Positions 2,067 through 10,524 of a DNA stretch of 10,819 bases are shown one piece after another. Under the pieces are notes generated by a model. The model had not been told where the DNA came from, did not search any database, and worked only from the letters and a program-made list of their open reading frames with translations. The stretch lies in the NCBI GenBank assembly GCA_019057635.1, contig DXJL01000106.1:1-10819 (forward strand), read 5' to 3'. Made by a program: the position numbers and the translations under genes. Each line of letters opens with the position of its first letter. Within the stretch, counting starts at the first letter, position 1. This DNA is from Candidatus Heimdallarchaeota archaeon. GTDB lineage: Archaea > Asgardarchaeota > Heimdallarchaeia > Hodarchaeales > Hodarchaeaceae.

Positions 2067-3470
2067 ATGTCCGTAGAATCAGTCTTACTTGTCTTTCCTC
2101 CTGACAAATGGGGAAACGTGGAGCGATTTTGTCAACCTCTAGGTATTCTAACATTAGCAACTATTCTAAAAAGAGAAGGTATTAAGGTAACTGTCATTGA
2201 TCTTTCTGCAGAGGGCTTTTCACCTCTAAGAATGATGAAACTCATTGCTAACGGGGATTTTACTCATATAGGTGTCACAGTTATGACACCATTCCGTAGA
2301 ATCGCCTACTCTATTTTACAAATTGCTAAAAGAGTAAACTCCAATATCACAACCTTAGCAGGAGGGCCTCATGTCACCTACATTAAAGAAAAAGTCCTTC
2401 TAGAATGTTCATATATTGATATTGCGGTAGCAGGAGAAGCAGAACAAAGGATAGTGGATATTATCCGCAATCCTGAAAAAAAGTTTTATGATTTAGGCTA
2501 TATAAAAGATATTGATGCTTTACCTTTTCCTGATCGTAGTTTTGTCAGGCATATTGAATACAACAGAATGACAAATATTTGGATAGGCGATTCAGCAAGT
2601 ATGAAGTGGGTACGGGGCTGTTCATGGCGGAAATGTCGTTTTTGTAGTAGATCCGTCTTGACAATGGCTCATCGCCAAAGATCTCCAGAAAAAATTGTTG
2701 AAGAAATTGCGATAATTCAAAACGAATTGAAGTACAAAAATATCGTCGTAATCGATGACAGCCTCCGGGTGAATTCTAAGCACACCAAAGAAGTCCTGAG
2801 ATTAAAAATTAAAGAAGGACTTGATATACCGTTCTGGTCGTTGGCCCGTGCAGATCATATTGACGAAGAGGGAGCCCGTTTGATGAGACAAGCAGGAGCT
2901 ACAGGGCTCCTAGTTGGATTAGAATCAGTTGTTCCACGTATGATTGATATGTACAAAAAGATTAGTGGAAATCCTCGTAATTGGTCGCATACACTTTCTA
3001 GGGCGTTCGACTTGGCTGATGAATATCAGTTGATTATTATTGCTACATTTATTGTTGGTGGGCCATACGAATCAGTTGAGGAAATACAAAAGACAATTGA
3101 CTTCTGCCGTACCGCAAAAATTGATATTTCTCAACCGTTTCCTTTTTTGTATTTAATAGGGTCTGATTTTTGGCAGCAGGCAGTATCGAATGGAAATATA
3201 AAACCCGATCAGTATTATTCCTATAATGATAGAAGTTTTGGTACGACTGAGCTTACTACAGAGGAAATTTTCGATCTTGTCTTAAAAGCTGAATTTATCA
3301 CAAATTCCCCCCTAATAAATCCATCACGTTATGTTAGATTAATTCGTAAATTGGTTAAACAGAAGAATTGGTCACTGATAGGACAGAATATTTTACGATT
3401 ACCTCTAATCATCAAGGATGTCTGGGGACAACATACATATGAGATAGTGCCAGAGGAACTCCATGAATAA
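2067..3470 (+). CDS. Cobalamin (B12)-binding domain radical SAM protein, probable class B methyltransferase-like enzyme, 467 aa
   Basis: N-terminal B12-binding domain motifs (QPLGILTLATILKREGIKVTVID, GGPHVT, GEAE, LPFPDR); RGCSWRKCRFC cluster motif at 2619-2645; RSPEKIVEEI, IDD, VGLES, FIVGGPYES radical SAM core motifs. Confidence 0.92.
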   Translation: MSVESVLLVFPPDKWGNVERFCQPLGILTLATILKREGIKVTVIDLSAEGFSPLRMMKLIANGDFTHIGVTVMTPFRRIAYSILQIAKRVNSNITTLAGGPHVTYIKEKVLLECSYIDIAVAGEAEQRIVDIIRNPEKKFYDLGYIKDIDALPFPDRSFVRHIEYNRMTNIWIGDSASMKWVRGCSWRKCRFCSRSVLTMAHRQRSPEKIVEEIAIIQNELKYKNIVVIDDSLRVNSKHTKEVLRLKIKEGLDIPFWSLARADHIDEEGARLMRQAGATGLLVGLESVVPRMIDMYKKISGNPRNWSHTLSRAFDLADEYQLIIIATFIVGGPYESVEEIQKTIDFCRTAKIDISQPFPFLYLIGSDFWQQAVSNGNIKPDQYYSYNDRSFGTTELTTEEIFDLVLKAEFITNSPLINPSRYVRLIRKLVKQKNWSLIGQNILRLPLIIKDVWGQHTYEIVPEELHE

Positions 3471-3799: not shown

Positions 3800-6370
3800 A
3801 TGACGAGTATTGATCTCCTAACAAACCCGATGAACTTTCTTGTCTCAATCGTATTAACTTTAACTCCACTAATAGTTCTATTTATTCCGTACTTATATAC
3901 AAGGCGAAAATCAGAAAATTTCTTAGCAATAATTTATAATCGTGCTTATATCGGCTTTGTTGTTTTCTATATCGCTTATTTCATATTTCCAAGTATCTTG
4001 AATTCGTTTGTACCAGATCCGAATCAATTCATTGATCAAGAATACTATCCCATAGCTGGAACATCAGGCTGGACCACTTTATGGGATTCAGAATCGGTAA
4101 TTACTCAAGGAGCAATATCTGCGCCTATACCACTTCTTATCAAGTATTTATTTGGACATATTGCCAATTCAATAGTTATCTACCTTAGTTATCCTATAGT
4201 AATTCTTGCTTTTGTCTTTGGGATCTCACCTATATTATCCATGACAATTCTTTTTTACCAAACTTGGACTGAGAAGCGGAATGAGATATCTCCTATAAAG
4301 AAACTGATAAAACGCAATAAAAATGAGATTTCACTACTTCGAAAGCAACTGAAGAAAGCTAGCGAATTAGAGGCATATGAAAAGAACGCTGCTCTTACCG
4401 AATTTGAAACTGAAAATAAAGATTTAGAAAACCAACTCTCGGAAGTAAGATCTATTTCTCAGAGACTTCAGGAGATACAATTTGAGCTCGAGACTTCTCC
4501 CTTTCGTGAGGTAATGAAACGGGTAAAAGAAAAGAATTGGGAAAATGAAAAAGAATTATTGAAGGTACTAATTGCGATATTACCCATAACTCTGTTTCTT
4601 CTGATGACAATTTTACAACTCCTCGGGGAGACTGAAAATCCAAGTTTACTCCAAGGAACATCGATGGGGTGGTTTTTAGAAATATATTTTGCCTATATAG
4701 CAACTTTAGTATTCAGTATATATCTAATAAAGGCCAGCCATTTGTCAAGGAAGGGTAAATTTTTAGGTAACCAATTATATGTAACAATGGTTCAAAGTTT
4801 ATCTACTGTTGGAGCTTTTATGTCAGGTTTGGCTGTCATTTTGTTCCTCGTACAATATTTCGATCAGATATTTGTGGTGTCGTACTTTATTGTCTATTTC
4901 ATTATGGTATCATTGTTTTTCGTTCTCTTTTTAGATATATTCGAACCATTTTCAATTTATCTATTGCTTAAACTTATAGAAAGCTTTAAATCTATTAAAA
5001 TTTCAACAGCTCGTTTCAACAGGATAAATATAGCTAAAGGAACGGTTTCTGGTATTTTGGTTGGTTTTCTCCTCTCTGTTGGTTTTTTAACATATTTAGT
5101 TATTGTTAAAAATATTTTCACGAATTTTGATACCGTTCAGTACGCGACCTTCTTTTGGTTAACTCAAAATTATGCAAGTTTTCTGTTAAGTGCTACATTA
5201 GTCTTAGTCATTCGTAGATGGAATTGGAGCGTCATTGGGACAAGCATCGTCACCTACCTTTCAATCTTATTTGTGAGCCTTTTTTTGTTTGGTTGGTACA
5301 ACGAGGGTTGGTATACTATACTAGGTTTCTCTGCAGGCGATGCATATCCTAATTATCAGAATGAGATACTGGTGTATCCTTTTCTACAGGCAACATCCGT
5401 TTTGGGGTACATTGATTTGAATTGGTTAACCGCAGTCTGGAAAGGTGGGACATTCGGGGGGTATCAATTCATTCTACCTGAACTTCGACAAATACCTGTG
5501 ATTTGGCAAGGATCGGGAGGGCAGTTTCTCCAAATTCTCTCTATCCCCTTTAATCTCTTTCATCCGTTGGCCGTCATCCTCGTTTACGGGGGAATTTTAT
5601 TCCTTGCAGGAAAACAATTCCACGTACGAACACAAAAAGGTGAGGAAAAAACTCAGTATAAATCAATTTTTTCCGATGTTACACGATTACCGAGTGTGGG
5701 TGAGCTAGAAAAGAAAGCTGACATATTGTTGATTGCCGCTACTCCCTCTAAAGATGAAGATACTGAGAAATTAGTTTCAAAAGCATGGATGAATTCAGAG
5801 AAAGGTGAAGTGATCCGAAATGCAATCACAGGTCATATGCTAACTATTTCTCAGTTAACAGAGAATATTGGGATCTCTATCAGTGAGGTCCATTCGATTC
5901 TCGATGAGGTTACCTATGATGCTGAAGTATCCTTTAGTCAAATCATAACCCTCTGGCATCGTGAATTCTCTTATTCTTTCGAAGAAGCAACCATCGATTC
6001 ACTCCACGTAATGATGTTGGATGGACGTGCTGTTCTTTCGCATACTTTCGCAGAAGAATCGCAAGTGGAACCAGCACTGGTGGCTGGGTTGTTCTCTGCT
6101 ATTACTTCTTTCGCAAAAGAAGCTGTTCGGAGTGAACAACTCCTCAAGACTATTGATCACGGTGATGTTGTTCTAACAATCGAATATGCGAACTGGGTAT
6201 TTGCTGCAATATTTGCAGACAGTACCTCAACCGAATTACGTAAAAAATTAGGCGAATTTTTGAACGACTTTGAAACGAGGCATAAGAAGACGCTTCCCAA
6301 GTGGTTAGGAGACTTAGATGCGTTTGCAGGAGAAACAAATACAATACAAGATCTTTTCCCAGGAGCATGA
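3800..6370 (+). CDS. Polytopic membrane protein with cytoplasmic coiled coil, HTH-like segment and C-terminal Asgard-type longin domain, 856 aa
   Basis: Roughly 11-13 hydrophobic segments by eye; K/E-rich heptad region at about aa 155-250; LTISQLTENIGISISEVHSILDEV resembles an HTH; aa ~732-856 (5993-6370) shows the longin pattern IDSLHVMMLDGRAVLSHTF...EPALVAGLFSAITSFAKE...LRKKLGEFLNDFETRH...WLGDLDAF. Confidence 0.85.
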   Translation: MTSIDLLTNPMNFLVSIVLTLTPLIVLFIPYLYTRRKSENFLAIIYNRAYIGFVVFYIAYFIFPSILNSFVPDPNQFIDQEYYPIAGTSGWTTLWDSESVITQGAISAPIPLLIKYLFGHIANSIVIYLSYPIVILAFVFGISPILSMTILFYQTWTEKRNEISPIKKLIKRNKNEISLLRKQLKKASELEAYEKNAALTEFETENKDLENQLSEVRSISQRLQEIQFELETSPFREVMKRVKEKNWENEKELLKVLIAILPITLFLLMTILQLLGETENPSLLQGTSMGWFLEIYFAYIATLVFSIYLIKASHLSRKGKFLGNQLYVTMVQSLSTVGAFMSGLAVILFLVQYFDQIFVVSYFIVYFIMVSLFFVLFLDIFEPFSIYLLLKLIESFKSIKISTARFNRINIAKGTVSGILVGFLLSVGFLTYLVIVKNIFTNFDTVQYATFFWLTQNYASFLLSATLVLVIRRWNWSVIGTSIVTYLSILFVSLFLFGWYNEGWYTILGFSAGDAYPNYQNEILVYPFLQATSVLGYIDLNWLTAVWKGGTFGGYQFILPELRQIPVIWQGSGGQFLQILSIPFNLFHPLAVILVYGGILFLAGKQFHVRTQKGEEKTQYKSIFSDVTRLPSVGELEKKADILLIAATPSKDEDTEKLVSKAWMNSEKGEVIRNAITGHMLTISQLTENIGISISEVHSILDEVTYDAEVSFSQIITLWHREFSYSFEEATIDSLHVMMLDGRAVLSHTFAEESQVEPALVAGLFSAITSFAKEAVRSEQLLKTIDHGDVVLTIEYANWVFAAIFADSTSTELRKKLGEFLNDFETRHKKTLPKWLGDLDAFAGETNTIQDLFPGA
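4280..4363 (+). repeat. Degenerate 42-bp (14-aa) tandem unit inside the coiled coil
   Basis: NEISPIKKLIKRNK (4280-4321) followed by NEISLLRKQLKKAS (4322-4363); both begin aatgagat. Confidence 0.4.
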
Positions 6371-6459: not shown

Positions 6460-9093
6460 TTAGTCTAGCTGTGCAATGACGCAGAGATATTTATGTGAAT
6501 TATACAATGATATCGATACGACTAATTCGGCACTTCCTGATGAAATAATAAATTTAGGTCCTTTCAAAGGATTGGTAGCTTTTGTAATTGTTTTGAAACC
6601 AGCCTTGGACAATAAATTTAAGCTTTTAACTAGTTCTGGTTCAGAATAAACACTTGTATTAGGTGTATTGTCTTTTAGTTTAATATTTGACTCAAAGATG
6701 ATATCTCGGATTAATATATCCTCTTTGAGCTGATCTGGTAAACTGCTCTCATGGATTTCTGCTACTATTTGTGTTACCCATTCAGAAGTTGTATCGTCCG
6801 CTTGGCTAGAAAGAGATTCAGTGGGGAGTTCATCTTCCTGGAGGGATTGTAAGCTCGATTTTTTGTATTCAGTAACAATTGCACTTTCATCAGATACATC
6901 GTTGGCATCAAAATTAGGTAATCTTCGGTTTGGATCTAGTGGAACTAATAAATCCCCTCTGAATAGGTTTAGAAGATTTTTAAAAATTTCTATGTACTTG
7001 AATTTAGAACTCAAAAGGCCGTGATTTACTATTTCTTTTAAAAATAATCCTTCTGAACTTGCTAATTTATTGCTCTGTTCCTGAATAACTTGGACAAGCT
7101 GGTTGTCAGTCATTCCATTTTCTCTAGCTGTCTTAAGCTTGAGTGGGCCTAATATTGATAAACCTAGAAATTGATCTAAATCATCAATGACTGCTTCAAA
7201 TGGATCAAGTTCTCCCAAAAAGTCCGTGAGGAGCTTATGAAATTTTTTTTCAAATGAATATACAAATTCTCGACCTCGTTTTCTCAAACGTTTACCGAAT
7301 TTTGGAGGACGTTCTAATATTAAAGAGGTTACAGAGTAGTTTCCTTCAATAGTTATTATTTTAAAAGTCCGATCACCGATTTCCTCGGAAAAATCCCTAA
7401 TTATAGTGCGATCTTTAATTTCTTCGTCCTTCAATTCTGTAAAAAGACTTGAAATTGCGGTTAAAAATCCAGAAACTAATTGTGGATCAACTTTCAGCAT
7501 TGAAGTACCAAATTTATATAAACAAAGACCTGTGAGCTTGTGTGTAATCATTATATGCTCACAATAAAGAAGATTTACTAAATCCTTGTAATCTATTGGT
7601 TTCATGGTGATTTGTGATAGAGCTAAATCTAATTCAAAGCTATCCTCATCTTTTGGGGGATCCTGTTTTGATAATTGCCTCTCCCCAATAGGATGAGAAG
7701 AATCGAATCGGGGTATTGAATCAGGCATGGAATCCTCTTGAGGATCAACATGTTTGGTTAACCGTGCCCGAATTTGAATTTTAATAGGACTTGAGATGCC
7801 ATCTTGAAGGCCCACTATAAGAGCTTCTCCCTTTGTGAGATGAGGGAGAACTGAGACAGTATCTGTATTTATACCTTCCATTAAACGTATTTTTGTAATA
7901 TCCTTCTCAGATTTAATCCGAAGAGCCACTAAGGTATTCATATTCGCAATTATATTATCTGGCAAATCTCCTGGTCTTTGAGAAATTAATATTTCGTATA
8001 TTCCAAATTTCCTACCCTCACGTGCTATTCTAGCAAGTATGTCACTTTTTTGGGCAAATCTATGTGCTTCTTCTATAATAATAAGAATCTCTTGTTCTTT
8101 TGGTATCTTTCCATGAACCTTCATCATAAAAATTTGCGTAAGCAGCTCGTTTACTAGCATATTACGTTTTTTTTCATCAGTATATTGATCTAATCGAATG
8201 ATTGACACTTGATTTGACTGTACGAGAGAGGATACACCTAAATCCTTCGTATACACAGATTGTTTTTGAAGAATGTTAATTTTCGAAATTAAATTCTCAC
8301 GAGTTCCTGTATGGATATCTGCATCTTTAACTTTTCTTAAAATGTCCTCGAGTTTCTCAGGTTCTTGTATCAGATTTGTGAGAACATTTTCTTGAGCTGA
8401 TGATATTTCCAATAGTCTTCTTATCTTTGGTAGATCAAAATGAGTACCTAATCCAATCGAATCTTTATCAAAGACCATTAATTTTTCAGTGAAACCTTGT
8501 GGGGTATATCCTGCTCGATCGAGGTTTTTTATTTCTTTTCCTGTATTTTCTAATCCTAACCCCCAATACTCATTATGAACATCAAACAGTAGGACTGAGG
8601 CGTTATTGAATTTCAGAAGAATTTCTTCTAATAACACCCCAATGCTGTATGACTTACCAGCTCCAGTACTGGCTACACAGAGAACATGTCGTTCTAAAAA
8701 TTGGGGTGATATTAAGAATGGATCAGTTGTAGAGGGAGAAGTAATAATATCGCCTAAATATATACCATCTTCTCCATCATAGGAAATAATCCTTGAAACC
8801 AATCCTTTAGGAGGAATAGATATCTCAGAATCCATTGAAACAGGAATTCGACATGTAGATAAGCGAAATTCATCCATTTCAAACTCCCCAAGAATAATTG
8901 CAATCCCTTTCATCTCATTCGCTTTTTCTTGAGATAATCTACTAACTTGTGCTAATAAATGTTTATTAGTTGATCTATTTTTATCAAAAAGGATGATATA
9001 ATCTCGCTCATGAATTTTATTCTTGGTAACATCTGAAATAAAAGTGATTTGTGAAGTAGTGGTTTTTAAAATCTTCATTGGTAAATCAACCAA
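6460..9093 (-). CDS. HerA/DUF87-family P-loop ATPase fused to longin domain, winged-helix-like segment and additional C-terminal domain (877 aa from TTG 9093; 872 aa if ATG 9078)
   Basis: HAS-barrel-like N-terminus; RHVLCVASTGAGKSY Walker A (8650-8673); LLFDVHNEY; LIIIEEAHRF Walker B (8062-8085); IAREGRKFG arginine-finger motif; ISQRPGDL; GEALIVG. Longin pattern at aa ~511-643 (7165-7563): HIMITHKLTGLCLY...DPQLVSGFLTAISSLFTE...FVYSFEKKF...FLGELDPF. Confidence 0.9.
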   Translation of the reverse strand: MVDLPMKILKTTTSQITFISDVTKNKIHERDYIILFDKNRSTNKHLLAQVSRLSQEKANEMKGIAIILGEFEMDEFRLSTCRIPVSMDSEISIPPKGLVSRIISYDGEDGIYLGDIITSPSTTDPFLISPQFLERHVLCVASTGAGKSYSIGVLLEEILLKFNNASVLLFDVHNEYWGLGLENTGKEIKNLDRAGYTPQGFTEKLMVFDKDSIGLGTHFDLPKIRRLLEISSAQENVLTNLIQEPEKLEDILRKVKDADIHTGTRENLISKINILQKQSVYTKDLGVSSLVQSNQVSIIRLDQYTDEKKRNMLVNELLTQIFMMKVHGKIPKEQEILIIIEEAHRFAQKSDILARIAREGRKFGIYEILISQRPGDLPDNIIANMNTLVALRIKSEKDITKIRLMEGINTDTVSVLPHLTKGEALIVGLQDGISSPIKIQIRARLTKHVDPQEDSMPDSIPRFDSSHPIGERQLSKQDPPKDEDSFELDLALSQITMKPIDYKDLVNLLYCEHIMITHKLTGLCLYKFGTSMLKVDPQLVSGFLTAISSLFTELKDEEIKDRTIIRDFSEEIGDRTFKIITIEGNYSVTSLILERPPKFGKRLRKRGREFVYSFEKKFHKLLTDFLGELDPFEAVIDDLDQFLGLSILGPLKLKTARENGMTDNQLVQVIQEQSNKLASSEGLFLKEIVNHGLLSSKFKYIEIFKNLLNLFRGDLLVPLDPNRRLPNFDANDVSDESAIVTEYKKSSLQSLQEDELPTESLSSQADDTTSEWVTQIVAEIHESSLPDQLKEDILIRDIIFESNIKLKDNTPNTSVYSEPELVKSLNLLSKAGFKTITKATNPLKGPKFIISSGSAELVVSISLYNSHKYLCVIAQLD

Positions 9094-9105
9094 CTTTTTT
9101 TCCTA

Positions 9106-9120
9106 ATTATAATTTTTCGG
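9106..9120 (-). promoter_or_regulatory. Putative BRE + TATA promoter of the HerA-longin gene
   Basis: Minus strand reads CCGAAAA-ATTATAAT; the spacing places the transcription start near 9083-9085. Confidence 0.5.
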
Positions 9121-9493
9121 GAGGAAATAATTAGTTTTTTTCTCTTACTTTGAGTTATGGGCATTCTTACAGAGGGCAATTATTCTACTGGGTACTTCAT
9201 TTATTAGAGTTAAGATTGCGATCAATTTAGTAAGATATTTCTGTTTCTGTAAGGCATTGAACTGTTTTTAGAATTCGTTTGATTGAGTTCTTATAATGTC
9301 TTCACTATTTTACCAAGTAAAATGAAATGGGTCTGTATTTCACTTCATAACCATTTGAATTCAAAGTGGATTATCAAATCTAGTCATAGAATTAACATCA
9401 ACTTAGTGATGCAAATCTTAATTAATTGATAATTCTCAAAAATCTCCGTTGCTATATTAATAGAAAATCAAAGAAAAAGTATTTTTGTAATCA

Positions 9494-9508
9494 CGAAAGA
9501 TTAATAAT
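9494..9508 (+). promoter_or_regulatory. Putative BRE + TATA promoter of trxB
   Basis: CGAAAG followed by ATTAATAAT; SD-like GGAGTG at 9556-9561 lies 9 nt before the GTG start. Confidence 0.45.
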
Positions 9509-9570
9509 AATTCATTTATCCATATAATATAATGTCAATTATCTGTTACTAAATTGGAGTGTAGCAAAGA

Positions 9571-10524
9571 GTGGGCACAGATTCTTCGAAATATGATATG
9601 ATAATCGTTGGTGCAGGGCCTGCAGGTATGGCCACAGCAATTTATGCTTCGAGAATGGGCTGGAACACGATTGTATTAGATAAGGGAGCAGTTGGTGGAT
9701 TAGCGGCAACTACGCCTATTATTGAGAATTATCCTGGTTTTAGCGAAATTTCGGGTATGGAATTTGCAGAGAGGCTTAGAAAACAGGCTGAAAAATTCGG
9801 TGCTGTTATAAAAGAACTAATTGAGGTTACTGATATTACTGTGGGAGAATCTAAAGTCGAAGTTCATACTCCTTCAGAAAAATATACTGCAAAGGTTATT
9901 GTTCTAGCTACTGGTACTGCTCACCGTCATCTTGGTGTTCCCGGGGAAGAAGAATTAGAGGGAAAAGGAGTTTCTTATTGTGCAACATGTGATGGTCCCT
10001 TATATGGATCGAGAAAAGTGATAGTTGTCGGCGGGGGTAATTCTGCGGTCACAGAAGCCCTTTATCTTGACAAAGTTGTTCGAGAAGTTTCGCTAATTCA
10101 TCGTCGGGATCAATTACGAGCAGAGGAATCCCTCCAGAAGCAAATATTAGAAAATTCTAACGTAAAAATGATCTGGGATTCAGTAGTAATAGAAATTAGT
10201 GGGGATGAGATGGCAGGAGTAAAGAAAGTTACAATAAAGAATGTGAAAACTGGGGAAGAGCAACAATTACGAATCAAAGCTGTATTTGTAGCTATTGGAA
10301 TTTTACCAAATAATGAGTTAGCAAAAAAGATCGGAGTAAAATTAACCGTTGATGGATTAATAGAGGTGGATTCGAACCAACGTACAAATATTCCACGAGT
10401 TTACGCTTGTGGTGATATTACTCCAGGCCAGGGGCAGATTTCGGTGGCGGTTGGAGAAGGAACCACTGCAGCTATCTCCGCATTCCTAGATATGCGTGGT
10501 GGAGACTGGTACGGGAACGAATAA
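9571..10524 (+). CDS. trxB: Thioredoxin-disulfide reductase (low molecular weight, NADPH-type), 317 aa
   Basis: GAGPAG FAD-binding motif, IENYPGF, GVSYCATCDG redox CxxC (9979-9990), GGGNSA nucleotide-binding motif, HRRD 2'-phosphate motif, TNIPRVYACGD, AVGEG. Confidence 0.96.
   Translation: MGTDSSKYDMIIVGAGPAGMATAIYASRMGWNTIVLDKGAVGGLAATTPIIENYPGFSEISGMEFAERLRKQAEKFGAVIKELIEVTDITVGESKVEVHTPSEKYTAKVIVLATGTAHRHLGVPGEEELEGKGVSYCATCDGPLYGSRKVIVVGGGNSAVTEALYLDKVVREVSLIHRRDQLRAEESLQKQILENSNVKMIWDSVVIEISGDEMAGVKKVTIKNVKTGEEQQLRIKAVFVAIGILPNNELAKKIGVKLTVDGLIEVDSNQRTNIPRVYACGDITPGQGQISVAVGEGTTAAISAFLDMRGGDWYGNE

Follow-up and report, generated by a model that had tools for sequence, protein, structure and literature searches.

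On a contig of 10,819 nucleotides from a Candidatus Heimdallarchaeota archaeon of the order Hodarchaeales (C74; the complete contig is the window of this report, and its genome of 3.19 Mb in 214 contigs is 91.6% complete), one gene encodes a HerA-type ATPase that carries a C-terminal tail of three domains, the first with a predicted longin/roadblock fold, the second resembling a winged helix and the third, here termed the C-terminal domain (CTD), met only with this tail. The three-domain tail is a portable cassette, present on two phylogenetically separate HerA-superfamily cores, and in a sister family it is encoded by a gene of its own. The protein is best explained as a third paralog within the HerA/FtsK superfamily (ring-shaped, translocating ATPases), one that does not serve in repair.

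What is the evidence that tail and motor are separable? Among 1.84 billion representative proteins a profile of the CTD gives only 20 matches. Those that are credible, one tail protein without an ATPase apart, are fusions with an ATPase or fragments of such fusions, and together they comprise the window's own family; P0063 and its fragment-like relative P0212; P0207, P0216 and P0217; and P0215, a tail of 482 amino acids without any ATPase. What remains are fragments and, in four or five cases, repeats that match in part; the two of these that were scanned are invasin-type Ig-repeat proteins. P0062 and P0063 (913–915 amino acids) resemble the window's protein over its whole length at 32% identity. 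A second type of fusion is that of P0207, P0216 and P0217 (870–964 amino acids, 27% identity overall), which have all three tail domains on a core of the DUF853/HerA_C kind and are devoid of the N-terminal domain (the counterpart of amino acids 1–110). Some six clusters of this type-2 fusion exist in all within a set of 5.8 billion proteins, the tail-bearers with a DUF853-type core being P0207, P0216, P0217, P0219, P0220 and P0223; no protein recognisable as P0207-like came up in 400 reference genomes, and two metagenome scans yielded no tail-bearing locus from which the DNA context of the type-2 fusions could be read.

In the tree that an IQ-TREE quick search gave for 43 ATPases over 595 columns the window's family, P0062/63 and tail-less proteins of Njordarchaeia form one clade, among ordinary HerA-like proteins, with a support of 98 in the Shimodaira–Hasegawa-like approximate likelihood ratio test (SH-aLRT), and the P0207 group together with the tail-less 580-amino-acid proteins of a sister family, f2, form another, with other Asgard DUF853-type ATPases (SH-aLRT 99). 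To force the tail-bearers (plus the f2 proteins) into a single clade costs 137.5 units of log-likelihood (p 5e-28 in the approximately unbiased test, the constraint group having been named after the tree had been seen). As 126 of the kept columns lie beyond amino acid 455 of the query, they should favour a grouping of the tail-bearers, which nevertheless stay apart. The profile scores tell of the same separation: matched to the window's tail, that of P0207 gives 169 bits for the longin part and 89 bits for the CTD, that of P0062/63 only 104 and 39 bits, yet the core of P0207 is farther from the window's core than is the core of P0062/63, and with a closer tail on a farther core the two parts must have had different histories. 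In f2, which belongs to the same order, the ATPase (580 amino acids, L164:928-2667) and the tail protein (501 amino acids, L123:1342-2844) are products of separate genes on separate short contigs. The DUF853/HerA_C (YjgR-like) archaeal ATPases are of the same superfamily, and supply the core of the type-2 tail-bearers, whereas the window's core is in the other clade.

Elsewhere proteins of the DUF853 type have other C-terminal additions: by precomputed Pfam labels, the archaeal ATPases P0245, P0248–P0250, P0240 and P0243, of DUF853/HerA_C type, have ubiquitin-like domains (PF00240) or winged helices of TrmB/MarR type fused to them, which is further evidence of an ATPase family that collects adaptor tails.

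Within its genus the fusion is constant. With amino acids 490–877 as query, a search of 400 Asgard genomes finds the complete tail, in frames of about 880 amino acids, in all 22 genomes of the GTDB genus (the window's genome and 21 others), three of which are single-contig assemblies; the one ortholog that looks shortened (810 amino acids in G073, an apparent deletion of about 70) is interrupted by a gap of 100 N. A word-indexed search of the 5.8 billion proteins adds about 60 clusters of roughly 860–890 amino acids, 45–84% identical at 97–100% coverage. The assemblies behind them, some with contigs as long as 3.2 and 4.9 Mb, are from NCBI, JGI, ENA and Logan. Their source labels are Hodarchaeales or Heimdallarchaeota, and the databases name them merely 'ATP-binding protein' or 'HerA-like ATPase'. 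Invariant residues are present in all three tail domains. Because the tail is conserved at full length across the genomes of the genus, an assembly chimera is excluded for practical purposes.

On its motifs the N-terminal half of the protein is a HerA-superfamily ATPase whose catalytic core is intact. Pfam DUF87 (PF01935, 'Helicase HerA, central domain') matches amino acids 113–274 at E 1.4e-16, with a score of 61.7 bits where the cut-off is 23.2. In an alignment of 48 full-length homologs none varies in the Walker A, Walker B, REGRKFG or SQRP motif, REGRKFG being what we take, on the pattern of HerA and FtsK motifs, to be the arginine finger region. Sequence matches of the core to HerA chains in the PDB range from E 8e-26 to 1e-21, the best rows being a 'DNA helicase' and Sulfolobus HerA. 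Beyond amino acid ~450 no Pfam or NCBIfam model matches. As to where the protein begins, the reading frame is open over 877 codons from a TTG, but the true start is probably the ATG at 9078 (M6), since homologs align from residue 4–6 and an identical database entry has 872 amino acids.

An AlphaFold2 model of amino acids 490–877, built from a 29-row alignment (mean predicted local distance difference test, pLDDT, 76.1; predicted template modelling score, pTM, 0.64), gives the tail its anatomy. The part from about 502 to 648 has the order alpha-beta-beta-alpha-beta-beta-beta-alpha-alpha (DSSP on the model, where pLDDT is 62–93), and in an exhaustive structural comparison with 48,161 PDB representatives by VIA-align, 52 chains reach a Z of at least 8. 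They include Roadblock3 of Prometheoarchaeum (9jue_D, Z 11.2, 2.1 Å over 104 residues), AP-5 sigma (8yah_C, Z 11.1, 135 residues), the longin domain from a Roadblock-Longin protein of Lokiarchaeota (8yqg_B, Z 10.9, 137 residues), the longin domain of VAMP7 (4afi_B, Z 10.7) and MglB (Z 10.0–10.2); Foldseek points to MglB and AP-2 sigma at E ~1e-3. Over the Roadblock/MglB and longin relatives as a whole (9jue, 7yh1, 8yqg, VAMP7, AP sigma) the likeness of the predicted fold amounts to Z 9.2–11.2, with a root-mean-square deviation of 2.1–3.4 Å over 96–137 residues. As the domain combines a roadblock-typical N-terminal helix with longin-typical C-terminal helices, it is named longin/roadblock-fold with no choice made between the two, and the model, a five-stranded antiparallel sheet (beta-beta-alpha-beta-beta-beta) with helices at its flanks, places it in that fold superfamily. 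From its relatives it differs in having no sequence-family match, in being fused to an ATPase and in having a winged-helix-like segment and a new domain behind it: none of the 29 tail sequences matches the Longin or Robl_LC7 families of Pfam at E<=1, matches of the tail to other Pfam families at that level are chance-level rows, and a PDB profile search with the tail found nothing below E 0.6.

The winged-helix-like segment rests on the topology of the same model, with one weak lead beside it, a cluster in the Atlas of which 52% of the members have TrmB (score 0.81). The CTD, modelled alone from 21 orthologs, gives a pLDDT of 87.3 and a pTM of 0.80, and has the invariant motifs DIL-R--FES and NP--G-K. 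It has no clear structural relative among the structures compared: the best Z is 5.2 (the CIPK regulatory domain 2zfd_B; SciW) and the best Foldseek E 0.03, with Z values of 3.8–4.5 for KA1-type and AMPK C-terminal domains, all of them too low for a claim of shared fold. Much of this had been anticipated by a sequence-only reading of the window. Its intact core with four motifs, its acidic and proline-rich linker (at about amino acids 450–496) and its 'unknown' last domain all hold good; its winged-helix-like segment has the topology of one in the model; its longin domain holds at the level of the fold, seen in a predicted model, and not at that of the sequence family; and of its coordinates the 877 open codons stand, and the start is likely to be moved.

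Could this be the repair HerA of its genome? It is not: the protein is a paralog, as had been suspected. In the same genome NurA (340 amino acids), HerA (528) and Mre11/SbcD (327) are encoded in a row on contig C212 (L001:19-3661), the separate locus whose presence the sequence-only reading had proposed as a check, and in four other genomes of the genus, the ones that were checked, NurA is encoded at two loci, with a HerA of ~495 amino acids directly downstream at one of these; that second pair of NurA and ~495-amino-acid HerA was not found in the window's 91.6%-complete assembly. The HerA of the C212 operon is itself very divergent, with an end branch of 3.74 in the tree. Against the NCBIfam models of repair HerA (NF040819 / NF040937) the fusion scores 100.1 bits where the cut-off is 970, and 80.5 where it is 800 for HerA of Thermoproteota; for antiphage HerA (NF042943 / NF042944) the values are 65.8 against 800 and 79.2 against 850, and for CedD (NF053655) 63.1 against 600. 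With archaeal repair HerA (HerA-NurA; Sulfolobus HerA 4d2i, E 1.3e-21 over amino acids 130–441) it shares the DUF87 core, its motifs and a domain N-terminal to it, and differs in being far below the equivalog cut-offs, in its tail of ~430 amino acids, in the separate NurA-linked HerA genes that its genome keeps and in its neighbours, among which Pfam and NCBIfam scans of the window find no NurA, Mre11, Rad50, Sir2 or nuclease gene. The absence of such neighbours and the flanking of the gene by one convergent and one divergent gene agree with the earlier account.

Another DUF87 protein, of 712 amino acids, is encoded on contig C10 of the genome (G000:C10, L003:580-2715); its best rows are CedD and transfer ATPases of the VirB4/TraD type, all far below the cut-offs, and a mobile element or a system of DNA transfer may be where it belongs.

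What might a HerA motor do with such a tail? The reading preferred here, held tentatively and at somewhat less than an even chance, is a hexameric translocase with a tail for docking to a partner, which would be a membrane protein or else a small GTPase. If it is hexameric, as other HerA proteins are, six tails would be displayed. The CTD would be the part that belongs with the motor, because it occurs only with these ATPases, fused or split, and the longin/roadblock and winged-helix part would dock the motor to some partner in which this module is also present, or by which it is recognised; it is the most likely docking part because the module occurs on the tails of many membrane proteins. 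The most accessible candidate for such a partner is the adjacent polytopic membrane protein, and the alternative would be a small GTPase, an idea that comes by analogy with MglB, Ragulator and the longin complexes that are guanine nucleotide exchange factors or GTPase-activating proteins, roadblock/MglB and longin domains being dimeric platforms for small GTPases. The result would be ATP-driven translocation or remodelling, of DNA or of protein, at a defined and probably membrane-proximal site. FtsK, the Ced DNA-import ATPase and VirB4/VirD4 offer a comparison in how such a thing might work, and in that only, as ring ATPases of the same superfamily at a polytopic membrane protein; the fusion differs from them in having no fused transmembrane domain and in its CedD score (63 against 600 bits), and its coupling to the neighbour is a proposal.

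It was true to say, as the sequence-only reading did, that the ATPase is without its usual partners, but this overlooks a candidate, the syntenic convergent neighbour that ends in a homologous longin-like domain; that reading also missed the portability of the tail, which recurs on two different ATPase cores. Compared by BLASTP, the last ~115 residues of that membrane protein and the longin-like domain of the ATPase are 28% identical (E 1e-6). In 20 of the 22 genus loci the next gene after that for the ATPase, and convergent with it, encodes an ortholog of the membrane protein (two of the 20 are truncated or partial), and in the other two a radical-SAM gene alone separates them. Across the genus its cytoplasmic tail is nearly invariant, at 79% mean column identity; the corresponding figure for alignment A2 of the ATPase tail is 47%, but eight rows of that alignment are from outside the genus. 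The membrane-protein family is Asgard-wide, present in 45 of 151 sampled genomes at E<=1e-15, with lengths of about 720–770 amino acids outside Hodarchaeales. A complex prediction of the neighbour's tail with the longin and winged-helix part of the ATPase (A2 residues 8–240) gave interface scores (ipSAE) of 0.01 and 0.00, the mark being 0.32, and counts neither way.

The membrane protein has no Pfam family in the library used, and some of its orthologs bear the precomputed label PF28006. In five genomes of Lokiarchaeia type (L146–L150) the ortholog is in a conserved block with six further unannotated gene families, none of them HerA. An unverified lead is that P0207 and P0173, a homolog of the membrane protein with 50% identity, are both recorded on a contig of 13,022 nucleotides from the same source.

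How widely is the first part of the tail used? Its first ~220 residues, the longin and winged-helix module, have matches in 342 of 400 Asgard genomes, mostly several per genome, and the nearest clusters in a protein-language-model atlas (score 0.90) are standalone Asgard proteins of ~220–236 amino acids. Nine carriers of the module were examined. In six of these, proteins of 740–2253 amino acids, it is C-terminal and starts 20–50 residues after a transmembrane helix, and the same six have an N-terminus like a signal peptide and an ectodomain, three with weak, sub-cut-off Ig-like matches; to judge from such features they resemble receptors of the type-I membrane kind. Soluble proteins make up the remaining three: FG-GAP repeats are present in one and HEAT repeats in another, and the third is the f2 tail protein. 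The occurrence of the same tail on two unrelated cores, its existence as a separate gene and the presence of its module on receptor-like proteins together suggest a real functional coupling rather than random fusion.

A bolder form of the docking reading would have the longin/roadblock and winged-helix module as an Asgard-wide docking currency, used on receptor tails, on the polytopic membrane protein and on the HerA motors of Hodarchaeales, with pairing of module with module, or of module with GTPase, recruiting the translocase to membrane sites and with a CTD that binds the motor, in cis when the two are fused and in trans where the genes are split. This is a long shot. If true, such a currency would be a prokaryotic forerunner of the GTPase- and longin-controlled recruitment of machines to membranes in eukaryotes.

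Several points weigh against docking. The whole block of five genes, inclusive of those for thioredoxin reductase and a surface protein, is collinear in the genus, so that the adjacency of ATPase and membrane protein may be simple collinearity, and since their two genes are convergent they are not co-transcribed. In none of 12 loci examined outside the genus is a HerA gene beside a member of the membrane-protein family. With many longin and winged-helix proteins in each genome, the sharing of the module is not specific. For the alternative partner, the Pfam and NCBIfam scans reveal no small GTPase gene within the window, and beside the standalone longin-like genes none is present in the three loci that were Pfam-scanned (six were fetched). 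The ATPase itself has no predicted transmembrane segment (transmembrane scan). Lastly, its nearest tail-less core relatives are ordinary HerA-like proteins, one of them in a Rad50-NurA-HerA context, and in a Njordarchaeota genome (L014:5808-8908) the closest of the tail-less relatives, of 640 amino acids, is encoded directly downstream of, and on the same strand as, a gene for a nuclease of FEN1/XPG type; these are pointers to DNA metabolism rather than to membranes.

Is it then a HerA paralog of DNA metabolism, active in repair, replication restart or chromosome handling, with a winged helix that binds DNA and a longin/roadblock domain that dimerises or regulates the hexamer, and with no coupling to membranes or GTPases? 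This is the main rival to docking, and we consider it somewhat unlikely. The company that the core keeps, including the Rad50-NurA-HerA-linked protein, speaks for it, as do the tail-less Njord proteins of 640–679 amino acids that are the sister clade (SH-aLRT 98), with FEN1/XPG upstream in the one locus examined, and the fact that the best NCBIfam rows are repair HerA models and the best PDB rows the 'DNA helicase' and Sulfolobus HerA. It has to contend with the lack of any adjacent nuclease or repair gene in the window or in six syntenic loci, and with genomes that already hold one or two NurA-HerA pairs. Nor would a DNA-binding accessory be expected to recur on a DUF853-type core, or to have its longin and winged-helix part mostly on the tails of membrane proteins.

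A function in antivirus defence, with the tail as a sensor or as a platform for an effector, is more improbable still. The PADLOC HerA models do match (best 123 bits), the antiphage HerA models of NCBIfam give 66–79 bits, and in the PDB the core matches several solved defence HerAs of the Sir2-HerA and DUF4297-HerA type (8xau, 8wiv, 9c1m and others), with E values from 5e-21 to 2.5e-16. But the PADLOC models match the genome's NurA-linked HerA as well and so are generic, the NCBIfam scores are far below cut-offs of 800–850 bits, and no Sir2, DUF4297 or nuclease gene is adjacent; among the window's neighbours no PADLOC effector model has a match, the one candidate row being for the radical-SAM gene (PDC-M51A, E 1.8e-13). 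The gene is present once, and in the same housekeeping-like chromosomal context, in 22 of 22 genomes of the genus, which is not what one sees of a mobile defence island. An artefact of assembly or gene calling that joined an ATPase gene with a separate longin gene, the alternative that the sequence-only reading had itself raised, can be dismissed, for even with a free-standing tail gene in the sister family, and with Logan contigs of four runs too fragmentary to span the junction at 7643–7671 or 7600–7692, there remain a frame that runs uninterrupted in all 22 genomes of the genus, the three single-contig assemblies included, some 60 database clusters of ~870 amino acids from several sources, and a linker that is in frame and alignable among homologs.

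What is new here, and what is not? Familiar already are the HerA superfamily and the longin/roadblock fold, and so is domain shuffling in Asgard archaea. New are the combination of HerA with longin/roadblock, its presence on two different cores and the cassette-specific CTD, none of which was found in print. No paper that describes the fusion emerged from the literature on HerA with longin, roadblock, Asgard or Heimdallarchaeia, which bears out the earlier impression that it was not to be recognised among characterised proteins. Few 'eukaryotic signature' domains have expanded in Asgard archaea as much as longin and roadblock domains have, and the roles of these there are almost wholly obscure; the fusion gives them a measurable output, an ATPase with assayable activity, oligomeric state, substrate and localisation. 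If the coupling is true, a lineage of archaea close to eukaryotes is seen to recruit molecular motors via longin/roadblock platforms; if it is not, the fusion adds one to the lineage-specific domain shuffles for which the phylum is known. Extensive shuffling of longin and roadblock domains in Asgard archaea is described in the available texts of Liu et al. (10.1101/2020.10.19.343400) and Makarova et al. (PMC10936438), and the present fusion is akin to the lineage-restricted multidomain proteins, with longin/roadblock joined to unrelated domains, that are reported there. Those texts contain no mention of HerA, FtsK or DUF87, and their supplementary tables may list the architecture.

Features of the window, with amino acid (aa) numbers for the encoded proteins, and the loci of receptor-like carriers of the longin and winged-helix module
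Feature	Position	Strand	Basis or remark
Whole ATPase open reading frame	6460..9093	-	877 aa from TTG; 872 aa from likely ATG 9078
N-terminal domain, aa 1-110	8764..9093	-	Conserved columns in homolog alignment; position that of the HerA barrel domain
HerA/DUF87 P-loop ATPase core, aa 111-450	7744..8763	-	Pfam DUF87, NCBIfam HerA models below cut-offs, PDB HerA chains
Walker A, ASTGAGKS, aa 141-148	8650..8673	-	Invariant in homologs
Walker B with acidic pair, IIIEEAH, aa 338-344	8062..8082	-	Invariant in homologs
REGRKFG, aa 358-364	8002..8022	-	Invariant R358, E359, G360, R361, K362, G364
SQRP, aa 371-374	7972..7983	-	Invariant Q372, R373, P374
Acidic/proline-rich linker, aa 451-496	7606..7743	-	Poorly conserved
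Longin/roadblock-fold domain (predicted), aa ~502-648	7150..7590	-	AlphaFold2 model, VIA-align, Foldseek
Winged-helix-like segment, aa ~665-729	6907..7101	-	DSSP order a1-b1-a2-a3-b2-b3 in model; topology only
Disordered acidic linker, aa ~733-768	6790..6897	-	pLDDT below 50
C-terminal alpha+beta domain (CTD), aa ~771-877	6463..6783	-	AlphaFold2 model; found only with the cassette
Convergent neighbour, 856-aa membrane protein	3800..6370	+	~10 transmembrane segments, coiled-coil insert, cytoplasmic tail (transmembrane scan)
C-terminal longin-like domain of neighbour, aa ~741-856	6020..6367	+	Homologous to ATPase aa 534-634
Surface protein, 596 aa	54-1844	+	Heimdall-CTERM sorting signal, NCBIfam 24.4 bits against cut-off 24
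B12-binding radical-SAM enzyme	2067-3470	+	Pfam/NCBIfam scans of window
Thioredoxin reductase	9571-10524	+	Divergent from ATPase gene
QueD	Start of gene only, in window		Pfam/NCBIfam scans
Receptor-like carriers (other loci)	L116:7082-10435, L116:3273-6767, L120:4032-6251, L117:3322-8409, L121:1799-7201, L118:2198-8956		Look receptor-like by sequence features

Of the other genes in the window, that for the secreted or surface protein of 596 amino acids is syntenic with the membrane-protein and ATPase genes in the genus loci examined. The placing of the radical-SAM gene varies: here it is upstream of the membrane-protein gene, in two genomes of the genus (L130:7291-8694; L131:4343-5746) it is between the membrane-protein and ATPase genes, and in four other genus loci it is missing from the block. 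The ATPase gene, convergent with that for the membrane protein, is divergent from that for thioredoxin reductase, and the AT-rich spacer of ~490 nucleotides at 9079–9570 that separates the latter two (about 31% G+C in the bin 8501–9500) presumably carries the promoters of both.

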